DNA of 64,000 nucleotides. It comes from Promethearchaeota archaeon. Lineage in GTDB: Archaea; Asgardarchaeota; Lokiarchaeia; Sigyniarchaeales; SOKP01. The translations under genes were made by a program, and so were the position numbers. The stretch is from positions 160,403-224,402 of the forward strand of contig JAHPZJ010000028.1 in assembly GCA_019058245.1 (NCBI GenBank), read 5' to 3'. Every line of letters starts with the position of its first letter. Within the stretch, counting starts at the first letter, position 1. Positions 17,880-28,052 of this stretch are shown one piece after another. The notes beneath the pieces are model-generated. The model was not told the DNA's origin and ran no database searches. It saw only the letters and a program-made list of their open reading frames with translations.

Positions 17880-18285
17880 AGTTTAGGTTTCGAGGTGTTT
17901 TTATATTTTACTGATTATAACTGTATCTTAATATATGATTAAGAAGTAATTTTTCTTTTTATAATTAATTTATGTAATTTTCCTTTATTGTAAATGATAT
18001 TAAAGCTTTATAATATTTCCCAATAATAAGAAAACTATTATTTTTTTGATGATATTCTTTAAATAATGCTTAATAAAAATTGATATTATTGTTTCAGTGC
18101 TATGATTTTTCAAGGATTATTTAATATTTTAGATTTATACTTTCAAGTGATTGATATTTTTTATAATAATATAGATAGATATTTTCGAGATTTTCTATTT
18201 TTCGTTAATAATAATGGTTTATATTAGTATTGCTAAAAATTATAAAATATTCCTTATCATTTTATTATTATATAAAAAAATACTG

Positions 18286-19773
18286 ATGTTTATGGATTTG
18301 AAAGAATTTGAATTAATTTATAAACAAAATCGGTGTGAGATTAAAGATAAAAAGAATATAGAAACTAGATTAAAAGGGATTGTTGGTAAGAATAATATAT
18401 CAACTAAAAAAATAGATTTATTAGCTTATTCTAAGGATACTTCACTTATAGGGTTCAATTGGACACTCCAAGGAAAAATTGCAGGATTACCTGATTTTAT
18501 AACATGGCCAGAAACAGAAGAGCAAATATCAGAAATTTTAAAACTAGCAAATAGAGAGAAGATTCCTGTAATACCATATGGTGAGGGATCTGGAGTTGTT
18601 GGGGGTGCGATACCAGTTTATGGGGGAATTATTATTGATATGAAAAAATTTAATAACATTCTTGAAATAAATGATAAAAATTTGACAGTTACTGCTCAAA
18701 CTGGTATTAATGGAATGAATTTGGAACGTTATTTAAATGCTAGAGGATATACAACAGGTCATATACCACAATCTCTTTATATTTCTTCATTAGGGGGATG
18801 GATAGCTCATAGAGCTGCAGGACAATTTAGTACTAAATATGGAAAGATAGAAGATATAATTTTAGGAATGGAAGTAATTCTACCTCAAGGAAAGATTGTA
18901 AAATTTAAAACTATTTCCAGGGCATCAACTGGTCCTCAATTTGATAAGCTATTCATTGGCTGTGAGGGTACACTAGGAATTATTACAAAAGCTACACTTA
19001 AAATATGGCCCTATCCTGAAACAAGAGCATTAATTTCTTATGCCTTCCCTACTTTTGAGGATTCTTTAGAAGCAACTAGACAAATATTAAGGCAACAAAT
19101 TTATCCTGCTGTTATCCGAATTTATGATGCCGATGAAACATTCAGACATTTTGATCATATAGAAAAAGCTAAGAATAAGGTGATGGTTGTGTTTGTTTGT
19201 GAGGGGATTAAAAGCCTGGTTAATCTTGAAAAGGCAATTACTATGGATACATGTGAAAAAAATAATGGTGTTGCGTGTGGGGAAGAACCAGTTGAACATT
19301 GGTTTGAAACTAGATTTAGAGTAACTGAAACTTCATTATCGCCAACATTAAAGACAGTTTTTGATACAATCGAAATTGAAATTTTATGGGATAAGGCAGC
19401 AGATCTATATCACTCTGTAATAACTACAACTAAAAAAATAAAAGGTTTAATTTTTATAACAGCGCATGTATCTCACTTTTATCCTAATGGAGTAGGGTTT
19501 TATTTTAGTTTTGCGGGAATTGCTCCAAAAGAAAAAACTGATCTTGAATTTTATCAAGAGGTTTGGAATACAGTTATTAAAGCAGTAGAAGATTGCGGTG
19601 GATCATTTGGACACCATCACGGTGTAGGAATCAATAGGTCAAAGTGGATGCCAGTAGAATGGGGTGTATCGTTTGATACTATAAAACAGATAAAGAATTT
19701 ACTTGATCCTAATAATATTTTAAACCCAGGGAAAATTTATGAAAATCTTTGGAAAAACGGAGATGAGAAATAA
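18286..19773 (+). CDS. FAD-binding oxidoreductase, alkyl-DHAP synthase (AGPS)/YgcU-like; start likely 18286 or 18292 rather than 18214
   Basis: PYGEGSGVVGG, GHIPQS..SSLGGWIA..AAGQFSTKYGKIED, GCEGTLGIIT, HVSHFY, HHHGVG, DPNNILNPGK. Confidence 0.85.
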   Translation: MFMDLKEFELIYKQNRCEIKDKKNIETRLKGIVGKNNISTKKIDLLAYSKDTSLIGFNWTLQGKIAGLPDFITWPETEEQISEILKLANREKIPVIPYGEGSGVVGGAIPVYGGIIIDMKKFNNILEINDKNLTVTAQTGINGMNLERYLNARGYTTGHIPQSLYISSLGGWIAHRAAGQFSTKYGKIEDIILGMEVILPQGKIVKFKTISRASTGPQFDKLFIGCEGTLGIITKATLKIWPYPETRALISYAFPTFEDSLEATRQILRQQIYPAVIRIYDADETFRHFDHIEKAKNKVMVVFVCEGIKSLVNLEKAITMDTCEKNNGVACGEEPVEHWFETRFRVTETSLSPTLKTVFDTIEIEILWDKAADLYHSVITTTKKIKGLIFITAHVSHFYPNGVGFYFSFAGIAPKEKTDLEFYQEVWNTVIKAVEDCGGSFGHHHGVGINRSKWMPVEWGVSFDTIKQIKNLLDPNNILNPGKIYENLWKNGDEK

Positions 19774-21042
19774 ATGAGTGAGATCTTAGAGAAATATAAA
19801 TGGATTGGCCCAATCATTGAAAAAATGGATCGAGACTTAAAACGGATATTTATGAAAAATTTTAGAATGCGAGATAAAAACTTTTTTCCAGAAGGGGATT
19901 ATAAAGCAGATATAAAAAACTTAGTTAATTGTATGCTCTGTCCAAATATGTGTAGATTTGATTGTGGTACGTTACAAACCTCTCTAACTGAAACCATGAG
20001 TCCTGCTTATAAAGCTCGGATAGGCTATTATCTAACAATAGGATTAATAGATCCAATGAAAAAAGAAAACCAAGATTTTATCAATTTAATGTACAAATGT
20101 ACAAATGAGGAAAACTGTAAAATTTGGTGCCCTTTTGAATTTTCGGTCGTATCACTCTTAGAGACTGTCAGAGAAGATTTAAATGATAAAAATTTGATGC
20201 CAGATTACTGTAAACAGCAGATTGATAAGTTGAATAATACGAATACTATAGAAGAGTACAATATATATCGAACTTATACTGAAAAAGGAATAGAAAATAT
20301 AGAAACGGATGGTAATGACGAAGTTTTCTATTATATTGGATGTGAATCAATGAAATTTCCTGAAGTTATAAAAGCAAATATAGAGATATTAAAGAAAGCT
20401 GGAATAAAATTTTCAACTAATCTTGATAGCAAAATATGTTGTGGAGGTCCAGCATTTAATATTAGAGAAATGGAAACCGCAAATAAGTTTGCTATGAAAA
20501 ATAAAGAACTTATTGAGGCAACAGGTGCTAAGACCATCATATCAGATTGTCCGGGATGTATATTAACATTATCAAATAGATATGAAAAACTCGGAGTTAA
20601 AATTGAAAAACAAATAATCCATATTGTTCAGTTCTTTAAAAAGTTAATTGATGATGGAAAATTAAGTTTTAAAAATAAAATTCCTGAAGAATTTAGAAAA
20701 ATCACTATTCATGATCCTTGTCTTATTGCTAGAAATTTAAAAGATACTGAATCAATAAGATTTATTCTTAATAGGATCCCTGATTTGGAAATTTTTGAAC
20801 CTCTTTATAATAAAGACTATGTTCATTGTTGTGGGTGGAGTGGTACTAACCATTGGGCAGATAGAGACTTAGCTATTAGAGAAGCAAGGAATAGAATTAA
20901 TGAATTAAAAGATACTGGAGTAAATATTTTCATATCCGCATGTCCTCTCTGTGAATTAGGTCTAGCTTATGGAATTGATGAAAATGAAAAAGAAAAATAT
21001 AAGATAATGGATATATCTGAATTGATAATAAGAATTTTATAA
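19774..21042 (+). CDS. Fe-S protein with CCG domains (GlpC/HdrD-like)
   Basis: CMLCPNMCRFDC, YYIGC, CCGG, CPGC, HDPC, CCGW, SACPLC; starts directly after the previous stop. Confidence 0.88.
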   Translation: MSEILEKYKWIGPIIEKMDRDLKRIFMKNFRMRDKNFFPEGDYKADIKNLVNCMLCPNMCRFDCGTLQTSLTETMSPAYKARIGYYLTIGLIDPMKKENQDFINLMYKCTNEENCKIWCPFEFSVVSLLETVREDLNDKNLMPDYCKQQIDKLNNTNTIEEYNIYRTYTEKGIENIETDGNDEVFYYIGCESMKFPEVIKANIEILKKAGIKFSTNLDSKICCGGPAFNIREMETANKFAMKNKELIEATGAKTIISDCPGCILTLSNRYEKLGVKIEKQIIHIVQFFKKLIDDGKLSFKNKIPEEFRKITIHDPCLIARNLKDTESIRFILNRIPDLEIFEPLYNKDYVHCCGWSGTNHWADRDLAIREARNRINELKDTGVNIFISACPLCELGLAYGIDENEKEKYKIMDISELIIRIL

Positions 21043-21077
21043 AAATAATAGGTATAATAAAATAAGGGTGTGATATT

Positions 21078-22538
21078 ATGAGTGATCTGATTTGTGTATT
21101 CGACGTTGGAACTACTGGAGCTAGAACGATAATTTTTAATGATAAAGGTGAAGTAATTGCAAAAGAATATGAGGAATATCCTTTTATGAAGCAGCCTGTT
21201 GGCATTTCCGAACAAGATCCAATAATTTGGTGGAATGCTATAAAAAATACATGTAATAAAGCATTAAATCAGATTAATCCTGAAAATATTATAGGGATTT
21301 CAGCAACATTTTTTCGTAGTACAATTACGATTATTGATAAAAAAGGAGAAATACTACATCCTGCTTTAACCTGGATGGATGAAAGACAAGAAACTTCCGC
21401 AATTGAGTGGAAAAGAGAGGTTGATCTTAGAAGATCAATTCCTAAAATACTATGGGTTAAGAAAAATAAACCAGAATTATTTAATAAAGCGTATAAAATT
21501 ATCCATCCAGATACTTATATCTACTTAAAATTATGCGATGAATGTGTTACAGATCCCACAAATGGAATTTTTGGGATTTTAAATAAGAATACTCTAAAAT
21601 GGGATGAGGAGTTATCTGAATCATTTGACTTACCAATAGAATTATGGCCAGAGGTGCATATTCCAGGTGAGATCATTGGTGAACTAACGAGTACCGCTGC
21701 TGATGCTTTAGGTTTTAAAAAAAATATTCCAATAATTTTAGGTGGTGGAGATCAACAATGCTCATCATTAGGATTAGGTGTAATCAATCCCGCTCAAGCT
21801 AAAGTTACTACTGGGACTGGAACATTTATTGATTATGTTGTTGATAAGCCTGTAGAACCTTCGGGAGATTTTCCTATTTTTTCATTACCTTCTGTAATAG
21901 AAGGTAAATGGAACATTGAGGGTATTGCCCCAGGAACAGGTACAGCATTAAAATGGTTCGCAGAAAATTTCTCACAATTACAAATTAAGGAAAGTCAAGA
22001 AAAGAATATTAATATTTATGATATGCTAACAGCAGAAGCAGCTACCATACAGCCCGGAAGTGAAGGATTGTTATTTTTACCAGAATTATGTATCTTCCGA
22101 AAAGGAACACTTCATGGTTTAGGTTGGAATCATACTAGGGCACATATGGTACGAGCAATAATGGAATCTGCTGCTCTAGCTTCTCAAATGTATCTTCAAT
22201 TAATTGAAGGAATGGGAGGGAAGAAAACTACTGAATTGCGAGTTGATGGAGGTGCAATGAATAGTGAATTATGGACTCAGATTTTTGCGGATGTTATTTC
22301 AAAGCCAATATTAGTTCCAGAGGTTAAAGATGGTGCTGCTATGGGTGCTGCGATTTTAGGATTTTTAGGTTGCAAAAGATATGATACTATTGAAAAAGCC
22401 ATTGAAAAAATGGTTAGATTTCCCACAATCAAAAACTCAAGTAAAGAAAATCTTAATATTTATAAAAAATTAAAAAGAATTTTTATGCCAGTTTTATTAG
22501 ATATATACAGTAAAAAAAGAGTAACTAAAGATCTTTAG
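21078..22538 (+). CDS. FGGY-family carbohydrate kinase
   Basis: DVGTTG, EQDP..WW, WMDER, GGGDQQC, TGTG, PGSEGLLFLP, VDGGA.NSELWTQI.AD. Confidence 0.9.
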   Translation: MSDLICVFDVGTTGARTIIFNDKGEVIAKEYEEYPFMKQPVGISEQDPIIWWNAIKNTCNKALNQINPENIIGISATFFRSTITIIDKKGEILHPALTWMDERQETSAIEWKREVDLRRSIPKILWVKKNKPELFNKAYKIIHPDTYIYLKLCDECVTDPTNGIFGILNKNTLKWDEELSESFDLPIELWPEVHIPGEIIGELTSTAADALGFKKNIPIILGGGDQQCSSLGLGVINPAQAKVTTGTGTFIDYVVDKPVEPSGDFPIFSLPSVIEGKWNIEGIAPGTGTALKWFAENFSQLQIKESQEKNINIYDMLTAEAATIQPGSEGLLFLPELCIFRKGTLHGLGWNHTRAHMVRAIMESAALASQMYLQLIEGMGGKKTTELRVDGGAMNSELWTQIFADVISKPILVPEVKDGAAMGAAILGFLGCKRYDTIEKAIEKMVRFPTIKNSSKENLNIYKKLKRIFMPVLLDIYSKKRVTKDL

Positions 22539-22726
22539 CTATTCTTAGAATTTCTTTTTTATATTTCTAAAAATTAGATATTATTTATGAAAATAATTAA
22601 ATAAAACTTAAAAAGAGTAAAAATCTATTCAAGTAATCTTTATTTCTATTTATTTTTAAATTTAGAAAAGTATTTTTTGAATCTATTATTTCAAAAAATA
22701 TAGAACATAATAAACCTTTTGCTCAC

Positions 22727-23551
22727 ATGCCTTATTTTAAGAACCAAGAGGGTTACAATTTATATTATGAAAACATAAATTCGGATTCAAATAAGTGCAC
22801 CATTATTTTACTCCATGGATTCGCTTCATCTGCTTCTTTTTTTAAGGCTCAAATAAGTATTTTAAAAGAGGATTATCGAATTATTGCTTTTGATGCATTA
22901 GGGCATGGGAGAAGTGAGCACCCAAAAGAACTCAATCTTACAAAAAATCTAAGACATGATATCATAAGAGATTTAGAAGATCTTCTAAGATTTTTAGATG
23001 TAGATGAACAATATGGTATAATTGGGCATTCTTTAGTTGGTGGAATGATAGGTCAATTATATACAATGAAGCATCCAACAGATGTCAAATTTTTAATTTT
23101 ATTGAATTCAGGGTATATTATGATAGATAATGTTGTTAGAAATATTTTTTATAATCTACTCCCATATTTTATCAGAATGAATTTTTTGGATGTAGTTGCA
23201 AATTCAGTTGAAAAGTTGTTAGATAAAACAATTCCTTATATCATTACCGCTTTATCAGGTAGTTTACCAGGTTTAAATCTAACAAAAGATCAATTATATA
23301 TGCAAATTGAAGATCAAATTTTTAGAATGATCCATGAAATTAAAGAATATGAACCTAATATTACTTGTCCAACACTTATAATTGGAGGAAGGCTTGATAA
23401 TTTTGCTCCAGAACAAATGTCAGAAAAATTACACCAGATGATTCCACACTCTACATTAGAAATTATTGATATGGCAGGTCATTTTGCTCCAGCTCAAAGA
23501 AAAGAGGTAGTTAATGAATTAATAAGTAATTTTATTAGAAAGATTAGATGA
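22727..23551 (+). CDS. Alpha/beta hydrolase
   Basis: LLHGF, DALGHGRS, GHSLVGG, CPTLIIGG..D, AGH. Confidence 0.85.
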   Translation: MPYFKNQEGYNLYYENINSDSNKCTIILLHGFASSASFFKAQISILKEDYRIIAFDALGHGRSEHPKELNLTKNLRHDIIRDLEDLLRFLDVDEQYGIIGHSLVGGMIGQLYTMKHPTDVKFLILLNSGYIMIDNVVRNIFYNLLPYFIRMNFLDVVANSVEKLLDKTIPYIITALSGSLPGLNLTKDQLYMQIEDQIFRMIHEIKEYEPNITCPTLIIGGRLDNFAPEQMSEKLHQMIPHSTLEIIDMAGHFAPAQRKEVVNELISNFIRKIR

Positions 23552-24033
23552 AGGAAAAAAATCACAAACAAAATATAAATAGCTTTATGTCAATGAATGT
23601 TCTAATATCAATTAAACCAAAATATGTGAAGAAAATCGAAAAAGGAGAGAAAAGATATGAATTTAGGAAATCAATATTTAATTGCAAAAAAATAAATTTT
23701 ATTTATATTTATTGTACTACACCAATTAAAAAATTAGTTGCTCGATTTAAGATAAAAAAAATTATTGAGGATACTCCATTAAATTTATGGGAAAAATATA
23801 GATTTTTTGCCGGTATTAACAAAAATGAGTTTTTTAATTATTTTGAAGGAAAGATCAAAGGGTATGCCATAAAAATAAAAGATTTAGAATTCTTTAAAAA
23901 TTCTGTTGATCCATATCAAATTTGGTCAGATTTCATCCCTCCTCAGTCTTTTCGTTATATTGAAGATATCCCTTATACTTTTGATATAGTAAAAAGCAAT
24001 GAAAATAATAATTTAGAAATTAAAAAAGCATGA
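23548..24033 (+). CDS. ASCH (PUA-like) domain protein, 'LISIKP..GEK.YEFRK' type
   Basis: LISIKPKYVKKIEKGEKRYEFRK, YIYCTTP, LWEKY..AGI..EFF.YF, PPQSFRY; ATGA overlap with the hydrolase stop. Confidence 0.85.
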   Translation: MKEKNHKQNINSFMSMNVLISIKPKYVKKIEKGEKRYEFRKSIFNCKKINFIYIYCTTPIKKLVARFKIKKIIEDTPLNLWEKYRFFAGINKNEFFNYFEGKIKGYAIKIKDLEFFKNSVDPYQIWSDFIPPQSFRYIEDIPYTFDIVKSNENNNLEIKKA

Positions 24034-24050
24034 AGAGATCATTCTTCATG
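24029..24050. repeat. 8-bp perfect inverted repeat across the ASCH stop codon
   Basis: CATGAAGA-GATCAT-TCTTCATG. Confidence 0.5.
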
Positions 24051-24124
24051 AAAAATCTTAAATTTAATTGAAGAAGTTTAAATTGATTAGAATTTATTTA
24101 TTTTTAAATTATAAATGATTCAAT

Positions 24125-25477
24125 ATGACCAGTAAATCTAATTTAAATTTAGAAATTCGAGAAGCTGTCAAAGAGGATTTTGAATTTGTTGAAGGTATGA
24201 TGTGTCATGCTTTAGAACCTTATTATGGTGGAGACCATAAAGCCCATGCCAAAAGAATATTAATGACTCATCTCTCTGGAGGAATTGATAAAATTGGACA
24301 TTTTTCATTTGAACAAAAAATGTTCATTCTGTGCTTAAATAGTAAAACCGTGGGAATGATTCATCTCGTTGGAAAGCGTCAGGGTACTTATAAGATCAGT
24401 CCAATTATAATTGATAAACCTTTTAGAGGAAAATATGGTTTAGGATCGGTTCTTCTTGAGCACGCTGAAAATTATGCCATTAAAAAGGGAGCAAGGCAAA
24501 TATATTGTACCGTAGCTGAAGAGAATGAGGAAGCCCAAAGTTTTTTTTTAGAAAAAGGATATATAATAGCTGGAAAATCAGAAAGTCACTATAAATATGG
24601 TATTACAGAGCTAATGATGTATAAAATATTTTTAGAACCAAATTTCGATGAAAAATTTGACAGACCTAATATTTCGGTTCATTTATTAGAAAAAAAATAT
24701 GAACTACAAGTTTCAGATTTTTTATTAGAAAAACTTCCAGAGCACTTCATAGGAATTGATTTGAAATGGATTGATGCACTTTTTAAAGGATTTTATAGAA
24801 GAAATTCTAGGAATATAAACTTAAAATTTAAACTTATTTTTGTTGCTATAGATAGATATGATAATGTCTTAGGAATTGCTGGTGCTACTCCAAAGAAAGG
24901 AGAACCCATCAAAATTATGCCGTTTTTAGCGAAAACATTACCAGCATTTGTAGCACTATTATCAGATATTCCATTTGAACTAAGAGACTATGGTCATAAA
25001 CTATATATTCATATAACACCCTCCGTTGAGGAAACAATAGCGTTACAGCAAAATGGATGGAAACTTGATGCTGCAATGCCAGAAGCATATCAAGAAAAAA
25101 TAATAACTCAACAATGGAGTTTAGATATTGATGATCCAAATTTTGCGCGTATTATCCGCACAAAGAAGAAATATCTTGATTTGATGAAGAAAAATAAAAA
25201 AACAATTGAAGTTAGAGTAGCATATAAAAAAATGAAATCAATTAAAAATGGTGATAGAGTAAAATTTCGATGTCGTAACAGTTCATACACTACTACTATT
25301 AAAGATATTAGATATTATTGTTCTATTAAAGAATTACTCGAAAGTGAAGATTCAAATAAAATTATTCCAAATCGGTCTAAAGAGGAGGTGTTGAAAATAC
25401 TAAAAGATATTTATCCCGAAAAATTAGAAAATCTTGGTATGATGGCATTAGAATTAAATTTAAACGAGAAGAAATAA
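24125..25477 (+). CDS. GNAT acetyltransferase + degenerate second GNAT + C-terminal ASCH fusion
   Basis: Motif A IDKPFRGKYGLGSVLL and motif B NEEAQSFFLEKGY; second GNAT-like segment FVAID..VLGIAG...LQQNGWK; C-terminal KKYLDLMKKNKKTIEVR..IKNGDRVKF..IYP. Confidence 0.8.
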   Translation: MTSKSNLNLEIREAVKEDFEFVEGMMCHALEPYYGGDHKAHAKRILMTHLSGGIDKIGHFSFEQKMFILCLNSKTVGMIHLVGKRQGTYKISPIIIDKPFRGKYGLGSVLLEHAENYAIKKGARQIYCTVAEENEEAQSFFLEKGYIIAGKSESHYKYGITELMMYKIFLEPNFDEKFDRPNISVHLLEKKYELQVSDFLLEKLPEHFIGIDLKWIDALFKGFYRRNSRNINLKFKLIFVAIDRYDNVLGIAGATPKKGEPIKIMPFLAKTLPAFVALLSDIPFELRDYGHKLYIHITPSVEETIALQQNGWKLDAAMPEAYQEKIITQQWSLDIDDPNFARIIRTKKKYLDLMKKNKKTIEVRVAYKKMKSIKNGDRVKFRCRNSSYTTTIKDIRYYCSIKELLESEDSNKIIPNRSKEEVLKILKDIYPEKLENLGMMALELNLNEKK

Positions 25478-25478
25478 T

Positions 25479-25802
25479 ATGAGACGTCTTATTTTTAAAA
25501 AAGAATATCTAAAGCTCATCCTACAAGGAAAGAAAGTTTTAGAAGGAAGAGTTGGATATGAAAATATTAAGAAATTGAAGACGGGAGAAATTATTTCTCT
25601 AAACGGAAAATATAATGCAAAGATAATAAAAATTCAAAAATTTTCGAGTTTTAAGGAGGCATTGAATATAAATAATTATAAAAAGCTATTACCAAATGCT
25701 TCATCTATAGATGATGCTTTAAATATATATAGCAATATCTATCCCTTGTGGAAACAAGAAAAATTAGGTGTATTTATTTTAGAAATTAAATATCCATTAT
25801 AA
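25479..25802 (+). CDS. Stand-alone ASCH domain protein
   Basis: KEYLKLILQGKKVLEGR..LKTGEII..FSSFKEAL..LLP...IY..E.LGV; 1-nt gap after the fusion gene. Confidence 0.85.
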   Translation: MRRLIFKKEYLKLILQGKKVLEGRVGYENIKKLKTGEIISLNGKYNAKIIKIQKFSSFKEALNINNYKKLLPNASSIDDALNIYSNIYPLWKQEKLGVFILEIKYPL

Positions 25803-25992
25803 ATCTGAAACAAAAATAGCTTCTTATAGTTTTAACCAAATTATGAATTAAAAAATTGACAGTTTAGGAACTTTTTTTAATAGTATTATTCAATTTGAAC
25901 TCTTGTATTCAAATATAATAAATAAAAAGGAACTATATTTATTAGTAAGAGAAGAAAACTAAATTAAAAATATTCATAAATCTAAATTAAAG

Positions 25993-27021
25993 ATGAAGAA
26001 TAATAATGAAACTATTTTTGTATTTGCATCTGGTTATCGAGATCTATATAAAAAAGAAATTTATAATACACTAGCTTATCCATCAGAATTTTTGATGCAT
26101 TTTAGATATCGTTTAAAATGGGTAAGTTTAGAGATTTCAAATCACATTTCTTTAGAAGGTAAAAATCTTATTGTGATCGCGACAATTGAGCTAGATGATC
26201 AAAACAAAAATAAAAACCAGAAATTCATGCCATTGAGAAAAGGTAAGATTATATCTACTTCTAAGGATGGTGATACCTTACATATATATTTTGAATTATC
26301 GAAAGATTGGGTTTTATATGAGGATAACTCCAATGATAGAATAGATTTATATGATACAATTATTAAAAGAGGGGGTAATCCTTCCAATGGTGTTGCTGTT
26401 GCATTTGGGAACGCTCATAATTTTAAATTCTCTAATGATGATTTAGCATGGGTTTATATAATTAATAGGCTTGTTGAATTTCCAGAATATCAAAATTCTC
26501 TTTTTTTTAGATTAAACTCTGTTACAAGAGTTCCTAATAATAAACCTCTTGAATTAAAGAAATTAGATCCTTTTACCAATGGATATATTCTTAAAAGAAG
26601 AAAAAATTATATTTTTGATTTCTCATTCAATTTTGGGCATGAGCCACCAGAAAACGCGAAAAGTGCTAATTTTGAATTAAATAGCGATGAAATCCTAAAA
26701 ATATTTCCCAATAAGTTGATGTTGGGATTTAGAGTCGACAAAAAACATTTTTTTGTTTCTCCTAGTAGTCATTCTTCTAATGAGAGAACAATTATCTCTA
26801 CTAAAATAAAAGGTACTATTGAAGCCCCATTATTGGAAATTCCAATAAGGGTTACAAAAAATAAATTATTATATGGCTTATATTTATTTTTGATTTTACT
26901 TGGATTAATTTTTATAAGTTTACCTTTGGCAGAAAATATTTTAGGTGTGACTTTAAAACTATGTGGTGCTATTTCTACAGCTCTAGGGACTTTTTTAATA
27001 AATTATTATACAAAATATTAA
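25993..27021 (+). CDS. Hypothetical protein with soluble beta-rich N-region and two C-terminal TM helices
   Basis: 342-aa ORF; hydrophobic LLYGLYLFLILLGLIFISL and LCGAISTALGTFLI at the C-terminus. Confidence 0.75.
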   Translation: MKNNNETIFVFASGYRDLYKKEIYNTLAYPSEFLMHFRYRLKWVSLEISNHISLEGKNLIVIATIELDDQNKNKNQKFMPLRKGKIISTSKDGDTLHIYFELSKDWVLYEDNSNDRIDLYDTIIKRGGNPSNGVAVAFGNAHNFKFSNDDLAWVYIINRLVEFPEYQNSLFFRLNSVTRVPNNKPLELKKLDPFTNGYILKRRKNYIFDFSFNFGHEPPENAKSANFELNSDEILKIFPNKLMLGFRVDKKHFFVSPSSHSSNERTIISTKIKGTIEAPLLEIPIRVTKNKLLYGLYLFLILLGLIFISLPLAENILGVTLKLCGAISTALGTFLINYYTKY

Positions 27022-27188
27022 TCATTGCGATAGAAAATCAAATTTGGAATAGAGTTTTATTTTAATAGTAGAAATTAGTTAATTTTCTTTATATTTCAAA
27101 TCATTTTTAAATTAGATTTATAATAATAATTTTAAAAATAACCTCAACTAAATATTAAACATCATATATATTTAAAAACAATATTAAA

Positions 27189-27563
27189 ATGCGAAAGAAT
27201 TCAAATAATAATGATAATACAATCTCTATTTCTTATTTTAAAGAAAAAGTTAGGGAATTTGTAAAAGAACGCAAATGGGAGAAATATCAAACACCTCAAA
27301 ATTTGATTCAAGCTCTTGGAATTGAGATTTCGGAATTGTCACAATTATTTCTTTTTAAGGATTATTCAATAGAAGATATCAAAAATAATAATCATCTTTT
27401 AAAAAATCTTTCAGAGGAAATCGCAGATGTTTTCATTTATCTAATATGTCTTGTAAATACCTTAAATTTTGATCTTACAGAAATATTTATAAAAAAAATG
27501 GAAAAAAACAAGGAAAAATATTCAATTACAGAGTTTAACAATGGAATATATTATAAAAAATAG
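27189..27563 (+). CDS. MazG-like nucleotide pyrophosphohydrolase (dCTPase-type)
   Basis: FVKERKWEKYQTPQNL..L.IEISEL, EEIADVFIYL, KMEKNKEKY. Confidence 0.85.
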   Translation: MRKNSNNNDNTISISYFKEKVREFVKERKWEKYQTPQNLIQALGIEISELSQLFLFKDYSIEDIKNNNHLLKNLSEEIADVFIYLICLVNTLNFDLTEIFIKKMEKNKEKYSITEFNNGIYYKK

Positions 27564-27581
27564 AGGAATTGAGAATTTAAG

Positions 27582-28052
27582 ATGCCAGATATTAATAAAG
27601 CTCTTCTAGCTCCTTGTGGACTGTATTGTGGTGTATGTGCTATACATATTGCTGATCGAGATAATAATTCGAGATTTAAAGAAATACTTGTAAATGTCTA
27701 TAAGCCATTTTCTAAAACTGCAAATGATATCAAATGTAAAGGATGTTTATCAGAAAATCAAGAGGACATTTTTGGATATTGTAAGATTTGTCCAATACGG
27801 GATTGTGTAAAAAATAAAGGATTTGAGAGTTGCTATCAGTGTAATGATTTCCCTTGTAAATTAATAGATAAGTTTCCCATCCCTGTCGGAAAAAAAGTTA
27901 TTCTTCGGGCAATTCCCCGATGGAAAGAACTAGGAACTGAAAAATGGGTCGATGAAGAGGAAAAAAGGTATCATTGCCCCGAATGTGGTAACTCATTATT
28001 TCGAGGGGCAAAACGTTGTAATATATGTAAAATAGCAGTTGATATAGATTGA
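27582..28052 (+). CDS. Cys-rich DUF3795-like protein with C-terminal zinc ribbon
   Basis: APCGLYCGVC, CKGC, CKICPIRDC, SCYQCNDFPC, CPECG..CNIC. Confidence 0.8.
   Translation: MPDINKALLAPCGLYCGVCAIHIADRDNNSRFKEILVNVYKPFSKTANDIKCKGCLSENQEDIFGYCKICPIRDCVKNKGFESCYQCNDFPCKLIDKFPIPVGKKVILRAIPRWKELGTEKWVDEEEKRYHCPECGNSLFRGAKRCNICKIAVDID

Follow-up and report, generated by a model that had tools for sequence, protein, structure and literature searches.

A 64,000-nucleotide stretch of contig JAHPZJ010000028.1 from a Promethearchaeota archaeon (assembly GCA_019058245.1), hereafter the window, carries a gene for a GNAT-GNAT-ASCH fusion protein (gene B). Gene B lies between two genes for stand-alone ASCH proteins (genes A and C) and is followed by a further gene (gene D). 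What does this fusion modify, and which of its neighbors work with it? A first-pass annotation of the window had proposed a nucleic-acid acetyltransferase with ASCH binding partners, made of genes A, B and C. A cytosine-directed acyltransferase is the best reading of gene B, based on its homology to GNATs at the AmiF position and on the cytosine-antibiotic clusters that encode them. We favor, with moderate confidence, a prediction from sequence in which gene B acylates cytosine N4 from acyl-coenzyme A (acyl-CoA) and the ASCH domains of genes B and C remove the group. Genes B and C are best read as a horizontally moving cassette. The conserved unit is these two genes, not three; genes A and D share the insert and are proposed to be accessory genes or passengers.

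The core of gene B, including both GNAT domains, shares 35% amino acid identity over 328 aa (E = 5e-62) with the Photorhabdus protein P0323; the cluster member P0348 has 469 aa. Genes near P0348 encode DegT (372 aa), a dehydratase (445 aa), an oxidoreductase (319 aa), a nucleoside triphosphate transferase and a benzoate-CoA-ligase-like protein. Further neighbors encode an ABC protein (557 aa), GT4 (491 aa), a methyltransferase (249 aa), a nucleoside deoxyribosyltransferase (170 aa) and a cytosylglucuronate-synthase-like protein. These genes correspond in function, and mostly also in size, to amiB-J/L/O of the amicetin cluster. A second amicetin-type cluster, on a Rhodococcus plasmid, encodes a GNAT with 29% identity (E = 1e-39). 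Knockouts of amiF reportedly accumulate cytosamine, and AmiF is said to have been assigned to the amide between cytosine and p-aminobenzoic acid (PABA). Amicetin is built from two sugars, cytosine, PABA and methylserine (PMC7040171), and AmiF (AEF16045.1) is a 470-aa GNAT encoded in its cluster (PMC11677201 Table S3). Gene B and the AmiF-position GNATs have a homologous tandem-GNAT core and group in a single clade that excludes the more distant tandem GNATs (Shimodaira-Hasegawa-like approximate likelihood ratio test, SH-aLRT, 100). These amicetin-type clusters lie outside Streptomyces, at L165:5343-19410 (Photorhabdus tasmaniensis CP199718.1) and L160:1179-12930 (Rhodococcus sp. 2G plasmid p1). 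Both contain genes for an aminotransferase, a hexose dehydratase, GT4, a methyltransferase, a nucleoside deoxyribosyltransferase and a cytosylglucuronate-synthase-like protein; a benzoate-CoA-ligase-like gene is present in only one.

More distant tandem-GNAT members were reached using GNAT2 as query. Several have a MazG/dCTPase-like domain in place of ASCH, and others adjoin a deoxyribosyltransferase, Ham1 or a dCTP-deaminase-like gene or a CTP-synthase-like domain, the last being a weak match. Because nucleotide-pool enzymes are fused to or located beside the relatives, we lean slightly toward free cytidine nucleosides or nucleotides, over RNA or DNA, as the substrate. An isolated two-gene unit in Mycobacterium persicum (L166:9001-10829) encodes a GNAT-GNAT-MazG protein and a nucleoside deoxyribosyltransferase. 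Another operon (L168:2708-15659) encodes a distant tandem GNAT together with Ham1, a nucleoside deoxyribosyltransferase, a radical SAM protein, a formyltransferase, a kinase, an adenylation-peptidyl carrier protein (PCP), DegT and an ABC transporter, and is possibly a nucleoside-product cluster of a new kind.

Two routes to N4-acetylcytidine (ac4C) are established in prokaryotes, TmcA/Nat10 and TmcAL. No convincing TmcA/Nat10 was found in 54 genomes of the genus, though it was found in archaeal control genomes, and no TmcAL was found in this assembly. Thus, no known host writer supplies ac4C for the ASCH proteins of this locus.

AlphaFold2 yields a confident three-domain model of gene B (pLDDT 94.4, pTM 0.90), and the whole model has no match among solved structures. 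GNAT1 is presumed from its sequence to be the catalytic domain; in its CoA loop, G107 is invariant and G105 is kept in at least 90% of homologs. GNAT2 is an internal duplicate of GNAT1 (hhalign 99.6%, E = 7.8e-25) from which the CoA-binding loop has been deleted. The first description, of one intact and one degenerate GNAT, is right about this loss, but "degenerate" is overstated: mean identity to 98 homologs is 62.5% for GNAT2 and 62.8% for GNAT1, and 54 of 155 columns in GNAT2 and 69 of 162 in GNAT1 are conserved in at least 90% of homologs. Since the loop is deleted yet conservation equals that of GNAT1, GNAT2 is probably non-catalytic but not decaying, and is presumed to be the substrate-binding or structural half. 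In the fused ASCH domain, the lysine, glutamate and arginine of the motif are invariant in 99 fusions, and its model aligns with 2z0t over 107 residues (Z 17.8, root-mean-square deviation 1.8). A predicted complex of gene B with gene C scored 0.29 (mark 0.32), a value that speaks neither for nor against an interaction. Several fusions (L098, L001-L005, P0078, P0082, P0088, P0098 and P0100) have added N-terminal domains, that of P0078 being a SARP-type regulator (Trans_reg_C + BTAD), which suggests regulated versions.

GNAT1 matches single-domain GNAT folds at Z ~19, and its best fold and hidden Markov model matches are RimI/Ard1/PaiA-like. Such matches, and the existence of family members lacking ASCH, would fit an enzyme that acetylates proteins or amines and has no link to nucleobases, with ASCH as a generic RNA-binding tether and the neighbors as chance island cargo. 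The RimI/Ard1/PaiA-like proteins, however, are 10-25% identical, single-domain and far weaker matches than the AmiF-position GNAT, solved GNATs reaching E ~1e-7 at best against the gene B core. Furthermore, swapped domains and neighbors repeatedly point to cytidine nucleotides, and the fusion is repeatedly paired with separate ASCH lineages. We therefore regard this explanation as quite unlikely.

All three ASCH domains of the insert carry a K-x-x-E-x-R motif, and the octapeptides first read from them (GEKRYEFR, NKKTIEVR and GKKVLEGR) are correct. YqfB is an ac4C deacetylase of the Thr type; its clade has Thr or Ser in the octapeptide, whereas all three domains have Glu and so fall outside it. 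This Glu had been taken to make them binders rather than hydrolases, a view contradicted by GKxxExR ASCH proteins that hydrolyze ac4C via a Lys/Glu dyad (10.64898/2026.02.27.708502, 10.64898/2026.08.01.741249). In the first of these preprints, 19 ASCH proteins were assayed; Glu-type proteins hydrolyzed ac4C, with Lys and Glu essential. In the second, EOLA1 (K21/E24/R26) is reported to be a deacetylase of free ac4C. An earlier study, as cited in 10.64898/2026.02.27.708502, saw no activity on free ac4C for three Glu-type proteins. ZmASCH, the characterized protein nearest to gene A, is a single-strand ribonuclease with no activity on the free ac4C nucleoside, so the motif is insufficient for ac4C hydrolysis.

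At least 450 homologs of gene B were retrieved, the best 120 of them at 51-63% identity. They are scattered among candidate phyla radiation (CPR) bacteria (5/401 genomes), Acidobacteria, Planctomycetes, Actinobacteria and other archaea. At 70% identity the fetched loci fell into 47 fusion groups, 24 of which have a stand-alone ASCH within 600 nt of the fusion; the count is 18 among the 38 groups whose flanks reach at least 500 nt on each side. The partners lie downstream, upstream or convergent, and they fall into at least four lineages of the ASCH tree, in which deep branches are weak. Gene B clusters with the L016/L158 fusions (SH-aLRT 94) and gene C with the partners of these fusions (0.99), indicating that genes B and C came in together. 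The neighborhood survey and the trees thus support the proposal that the fusion and the downstream ASCH co-occur, and show joint arrival. Gene C, which matches PF0469 at E = 1e-17, is not a recent duplicate of the ASCH domain of gene B, with which it shares 39% identity while grouping with the L016/L158 partners. It is optional, since most other non-CPR branches have no partner. No neighbor other than ASCH recurs beside the fusion. Near homologs often adjoin mobile or defense-type genes, including a relaxase/type IV secretion element, type ISP restriction-modification and NucS, IS21/nSTAND3 and a helicase. Some fusion loci also have nearby tRNA genes, possibly by chance.

GNATs commonly confer resistance, and the patchy, mobile distribution, the frequent stand-alone fusions and the placement of the nearest informative relatives in cytosine-antibiotic-type clusters would also suit detoxification. 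In that case, gene B would N4-acylate foreign cytosine compounds, such as nucleoside antibiotics or damaged nucleosides, and the ASCH domains would mainly bind or recycle the product. A co-encoded deacylase would, however, reverse the protection. The plasmid collection gave a single partial tandem-GNAT match and none of full length, no gene B relative was found in phage records or IMG/VR, and no transporter or regulator recurs near the fusion. Detoxification is a rather unlikely explanation.

The genomic site supports the picture of an acquired cassette. In 27 of 29 same-genus loci, a hydrolase gene directly adjoins a MazG-like gene and the site is empty, whereas here ~3.6 kb with genes A, B, C and D separates them. 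Full-length gene B was not found in 60 relatives or in 300 same-phylum genomes, so the block, as first suspected, is not core synteny; it is an insert at a core site. In a related sample, one deep contig joins position 23538 to 27404, with intervening letters that are not known, which would fit a co-occurring relative whose site is empty. The G+C content at third codon positions is 0.16-0.19 in the insert genes, the same as in the host, which suggests that the insert is old or came from an AT-rich donor. No repeats mark its ends, neither an integrase nor a tRNA occurs at the site, and promoter and terminator counts at the insert are at chance level. No RNA run is listed among the sequencing runs that carry the locus. 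The position of the insert beside a MazG-like/dCTPase-like gene is remarkable. This flanking gene, present in 42 of 54 genus genomes, was ruled out as a module member because it is a core gene also present without the insert. The acquisition of gene B is a one-off in this archaeon, with no bearing on Asgard or eukaryotic origins.

Gene A has a different affiliation. It matches ZmASCH (PDB 5guq, E = 2e-12) and the PADLOC family PDC-M11B (E = 2.4e-47), and Glu and Arg are kept in 110 of 120 A-type proteins. Five other genomes of the genus have gene A homologs that come after a PIN-GNAT-EVE gene (PDC-M11A) or what is left of one, and only 2 of the 46 other fusion groups have an A-type ASCH close to the fusion, namely L043, where both M11 genes are present, and L029. 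The idea that genes A, B and C form one unit is therefore not supported, and gene A appears to be mostly a leftover of another candidate defense system. PDC-M11A, its usual partner, gave no tblastn match in this 76%-complete assembly. PDC-M11 modules (PIN-GNAT-EVE + ASCH) are sporadic in the genus, occurring in 5 of 53 other genomes (L118-L122), with one partner that looks broken (L121). A stop codon 23 nt into gene A was rejected as an M11A remnant, as it follows from the conserved start of gene A itself. A distant tandem GNAT (P0331) is fused to an A-type ASCH (E = 1e-11). A-type ASCH seems to recur near fusions above genome-wide expectation, which island clustering could explain.

The first-pass version, in which catalytically inactive ASCH proteins serve as readers or antitoxins to direct or neutralize a GNAT toxin that targets tRNA or DNA and all three genes form one system, draws on the same observations. 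Gene A is a candidate-defense component, the fusions of L043 and L029 have an A-type ASCH no more than ~1 kb away, P0331 combines one with a distant tandem GNAT in a single protein, several loci lie beside helicase, restriction-modification, conjugative or OLD-type genes, and ZmASCH is inactive on free ac4C. Against this, the catalytic K/E/R residues are invariant, Glu-type ASCH proteins are active, and A-type ASCH is absent near 44 of 46 other groups. Gene B reaches only E ~1e-3 against PADLOC and has no relatives in viral contigs. The toxin-antitoxin claim in particular does not fit the roughly half of fusion loci that have no stand-alone partner and the many partners that are convergent. 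We consider this version unlikely.

Gene D belongs to an unnamed family of ~340-390-aa proteins that end in a hydrophobic hairpin, and its AlphaFold model, from a two-row alignment, has a pLDDT of 40.5. The gene right after the fusion at L024:1911-3092 falls into the same Atlas clusters, with a 23% alignment, and is probably a gene D relative judging by sequence; it is the single recurrence. Apparent membrane proteins also follow other non-CPR fusions (L002, L029 and L066), and the run at L029:904-4586 comprises a fusion, a membrane protein, a COG4933-type ASCH and a weakly matching CTP-synthase-N-like protein. The four-gene insert could conceivably be one antiviral system based on a TmcA-independent, reversible N4-acylcytosine mark. 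Gene B would write the mark on cytidine nucleotides or nucleic acid, its ASCH domain and gene C would erase it in uninfected cells, gene A would read or cleave nucleic acid that carries the mark, and gene D, as a membrane protein, would be the effector. The A-type ASCH proteins beside or fused to the family (L043, L029 and P0331) and the probable gene D relative in L024 were noted with this version, to which we give little credence.

For the two-gene cassette, we infer the acylation and the deacylation, the acyl donor and substrate, and a purpose in stress or conflict. GNAT1 would bind acyl-CoA, probably acetyl-CoA; GNAT1 and the CoA-less GNAT2 would jointly hold a substrate that contains cytidine and acylate it at N4. 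Gene C and the fused ASCH would then hydrolyze the N4 amide by the Lys/Glu dyad, either resetting a mark or salvaging acyl-cytidine that would otherwise be neither deaminated nor recycled; an eraser would be needed for salvage because acylation blocks cytidine deamination. Several points weigh against this reading. The proposed amiF-position orthology of P0323 and P0348 was inferred from cluster content and size. The amide in amicetin carries an aminobenzoyl rather than an acetyl group and belongs to a small molecule; gene B may therefore use another donor and another substrate. By fold, GNAT1 most resembles generic acetyltransferases of proteins and small molecules, and a writer fused to its own eraser risks a futile cycle. 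The two preprints disagree on RNA substrates, and whether ASCH proteins act on tRNA is disputed. A stand-alone ASCH is missing from about half of the fusion groups, most non-CPR branches near gene B among them, and the pair counts overstate independence because many paired loci represent one related clade.

The genes themselves are secure. The three co-oriented open reading frames (ORFs) are real, at 23548-24033, 24125-25477 and 25479-25802, and genes B and C are separated by 1 nt as described. The ORF of gene A encodes 161 aa; its start is likely Met16 at 23593, since most homologs have ~125-145 aa. Pfam finds ASCH in the three ORFs at E = 1.7e-3 (just under the cut-off), 3.3e-6 and 2.1e-9, respectively, and GNAT PF00583 at aa 63-145 of gene B (E = 1.2e-10). 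The two ASCH subtypes first distinguished also stand, gene A being of the ZmASCH type and the other two domains of the Pyrococcus PF0469/PH0355/PF0455 type. One contig of a public sequencing run, which may be the source sample, spans 23125-27600 unbroken. An 8-bp hairpin at 24029-24050 over the gene A stop codon is terminator-like on the minus strand; such hairpins are no more numerous than chance. Upstream, genes for an FAD-linked oxidase, an iron-sulfur protein, an FGGY kinase and the hydrolase (18214-23551) are tightly linked and conserved across the genus.

Table 1. Genes and domains of the insert and its flanks, in window coordinates.
Feature	Position	Strand	Description
Left flank, alpha/beta hydrolase core gene, outside module	22727-23551	+	
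Gene A	23593-24033 (ORF opens 23548)	+	ZmASCH/COG4933-type ASCH = PADLOC PDC-M11B; in insert, loosely linked
Gene B	24125-25477	+	450-aa GNAT-GNAT-ASCH fusion; module core
Gene B, GNAT1	24149-24634 (aa 9-170)	+	Keeps acyl-CoA loop RGKYGLG
Gene B, GNAT2	24665-25129 (aa 181-335)	+	Internal duplicate; CoA loop gone; conserved G-x-x-G-x-T-P-K-K-G
Gene B, fused ASCH	25145-25462 (aa 341-446)	+	PH0355/PF0469 type; K359-E362-R364 invariant
Gene C	25479-25802	+	107-aa stand-alone ASCH, PH0355/PF0469 type
Gene D	25993-27021	+	342 aa, no named family, C-terminal hydrophobic helical hairpin; fourth insert gene
Right flank, MazG-like/dCTPase-like core gene, outside insert	27189-27563	+	

Full-text literature searches retrieved no description of GNAT-GNAT-ASCH + ASCH, though Iyer 2013 or Fig. 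S1a of the EOLA1 preprint might show it. The suggestion that this architecture is not a named system thus holds for the exact arrangement, but the class of GNAT-ASCH/EVE associations was predicted earlier (Bell 2020 PMC7641849; Matelska 2017 PMC5499597). The locus contributes an Asgard-type host, a defined empty site, an orphan M11B gene and gene D. ASCH erasers acting on RNA have been reported only in 2026 preprints, without a clear physiological role. If the favored reading is true, this genus, in which TmcA is not detectable, would have a third route to ac4C: a compact writer that lacks a helicase domain and carries a candidate eraser in the same protein. PH0355-type ASCH proteins would gain a natural substrate, and an antibiotic-biosynthesis enzyme family would be linked to nucleotide or RNA modification.

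Among known systems, PDC-M11 ((PIN)-GNAT-EVE + ASCH, COG4933) shares the logic of a GNAT, a PUA-like domain and a second ASCH, and gene A is its ASCH subunit. Gene B is not PDC-M11A, as it matches that family at E = 9e-4, compared to E = 1e-138 or better for true M11A, with no significant BLAST match. It also has no PIN domain, two GNATs, a PH0355-type ASCH and an intact GNAT1 CoA loop, which PIN-linked GNATs reportedly lack. TmcA/Nat10, with a YqfB-clade ASCH in some operons, has the same proposed product, N4-acylcytidine, and a writer-eraser linkage. Gene B, however, is a tandem GNAT without a helicase/ATPase or DUF1726 domain, and it is sporadic and mobile, whereas TmcA/Nat10 is housekeeping. 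The GNAT type II toxins TacT/AtaT share the GNAT fold and a two-gene mobile cassette, but the insert has no ribbon-helix-helix or helix-turn-helix antitoxin, the partner is optional and often convergent, and the GNAT is tandem. The Glu-type ASCH deacetylases (TthASCH, EOLA1 and Pyrococcus Pku) have the same fold (structures PH0355/PF0455/PF0469) and the same motif as the ASCH domains here, which differ in being fused or coupled to an acyltransferase; the assayed Pku proteins may differ in subtype. The AmiF-position GNATs of L165 and L160 end in a C-terminal MazG/dCTPase-like domain, whereas gene B ends in ASCH, and they sit with sugar, glycosyltransferase and CoA-ligase biosynthetic genes, none of which occurs in the gene B insert or flanks. 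Collectively, as predicted from their sequences, genes B and C would combine the action of an AmiF-type acyltransferase with that of a Glu-type ASCH deacylase.

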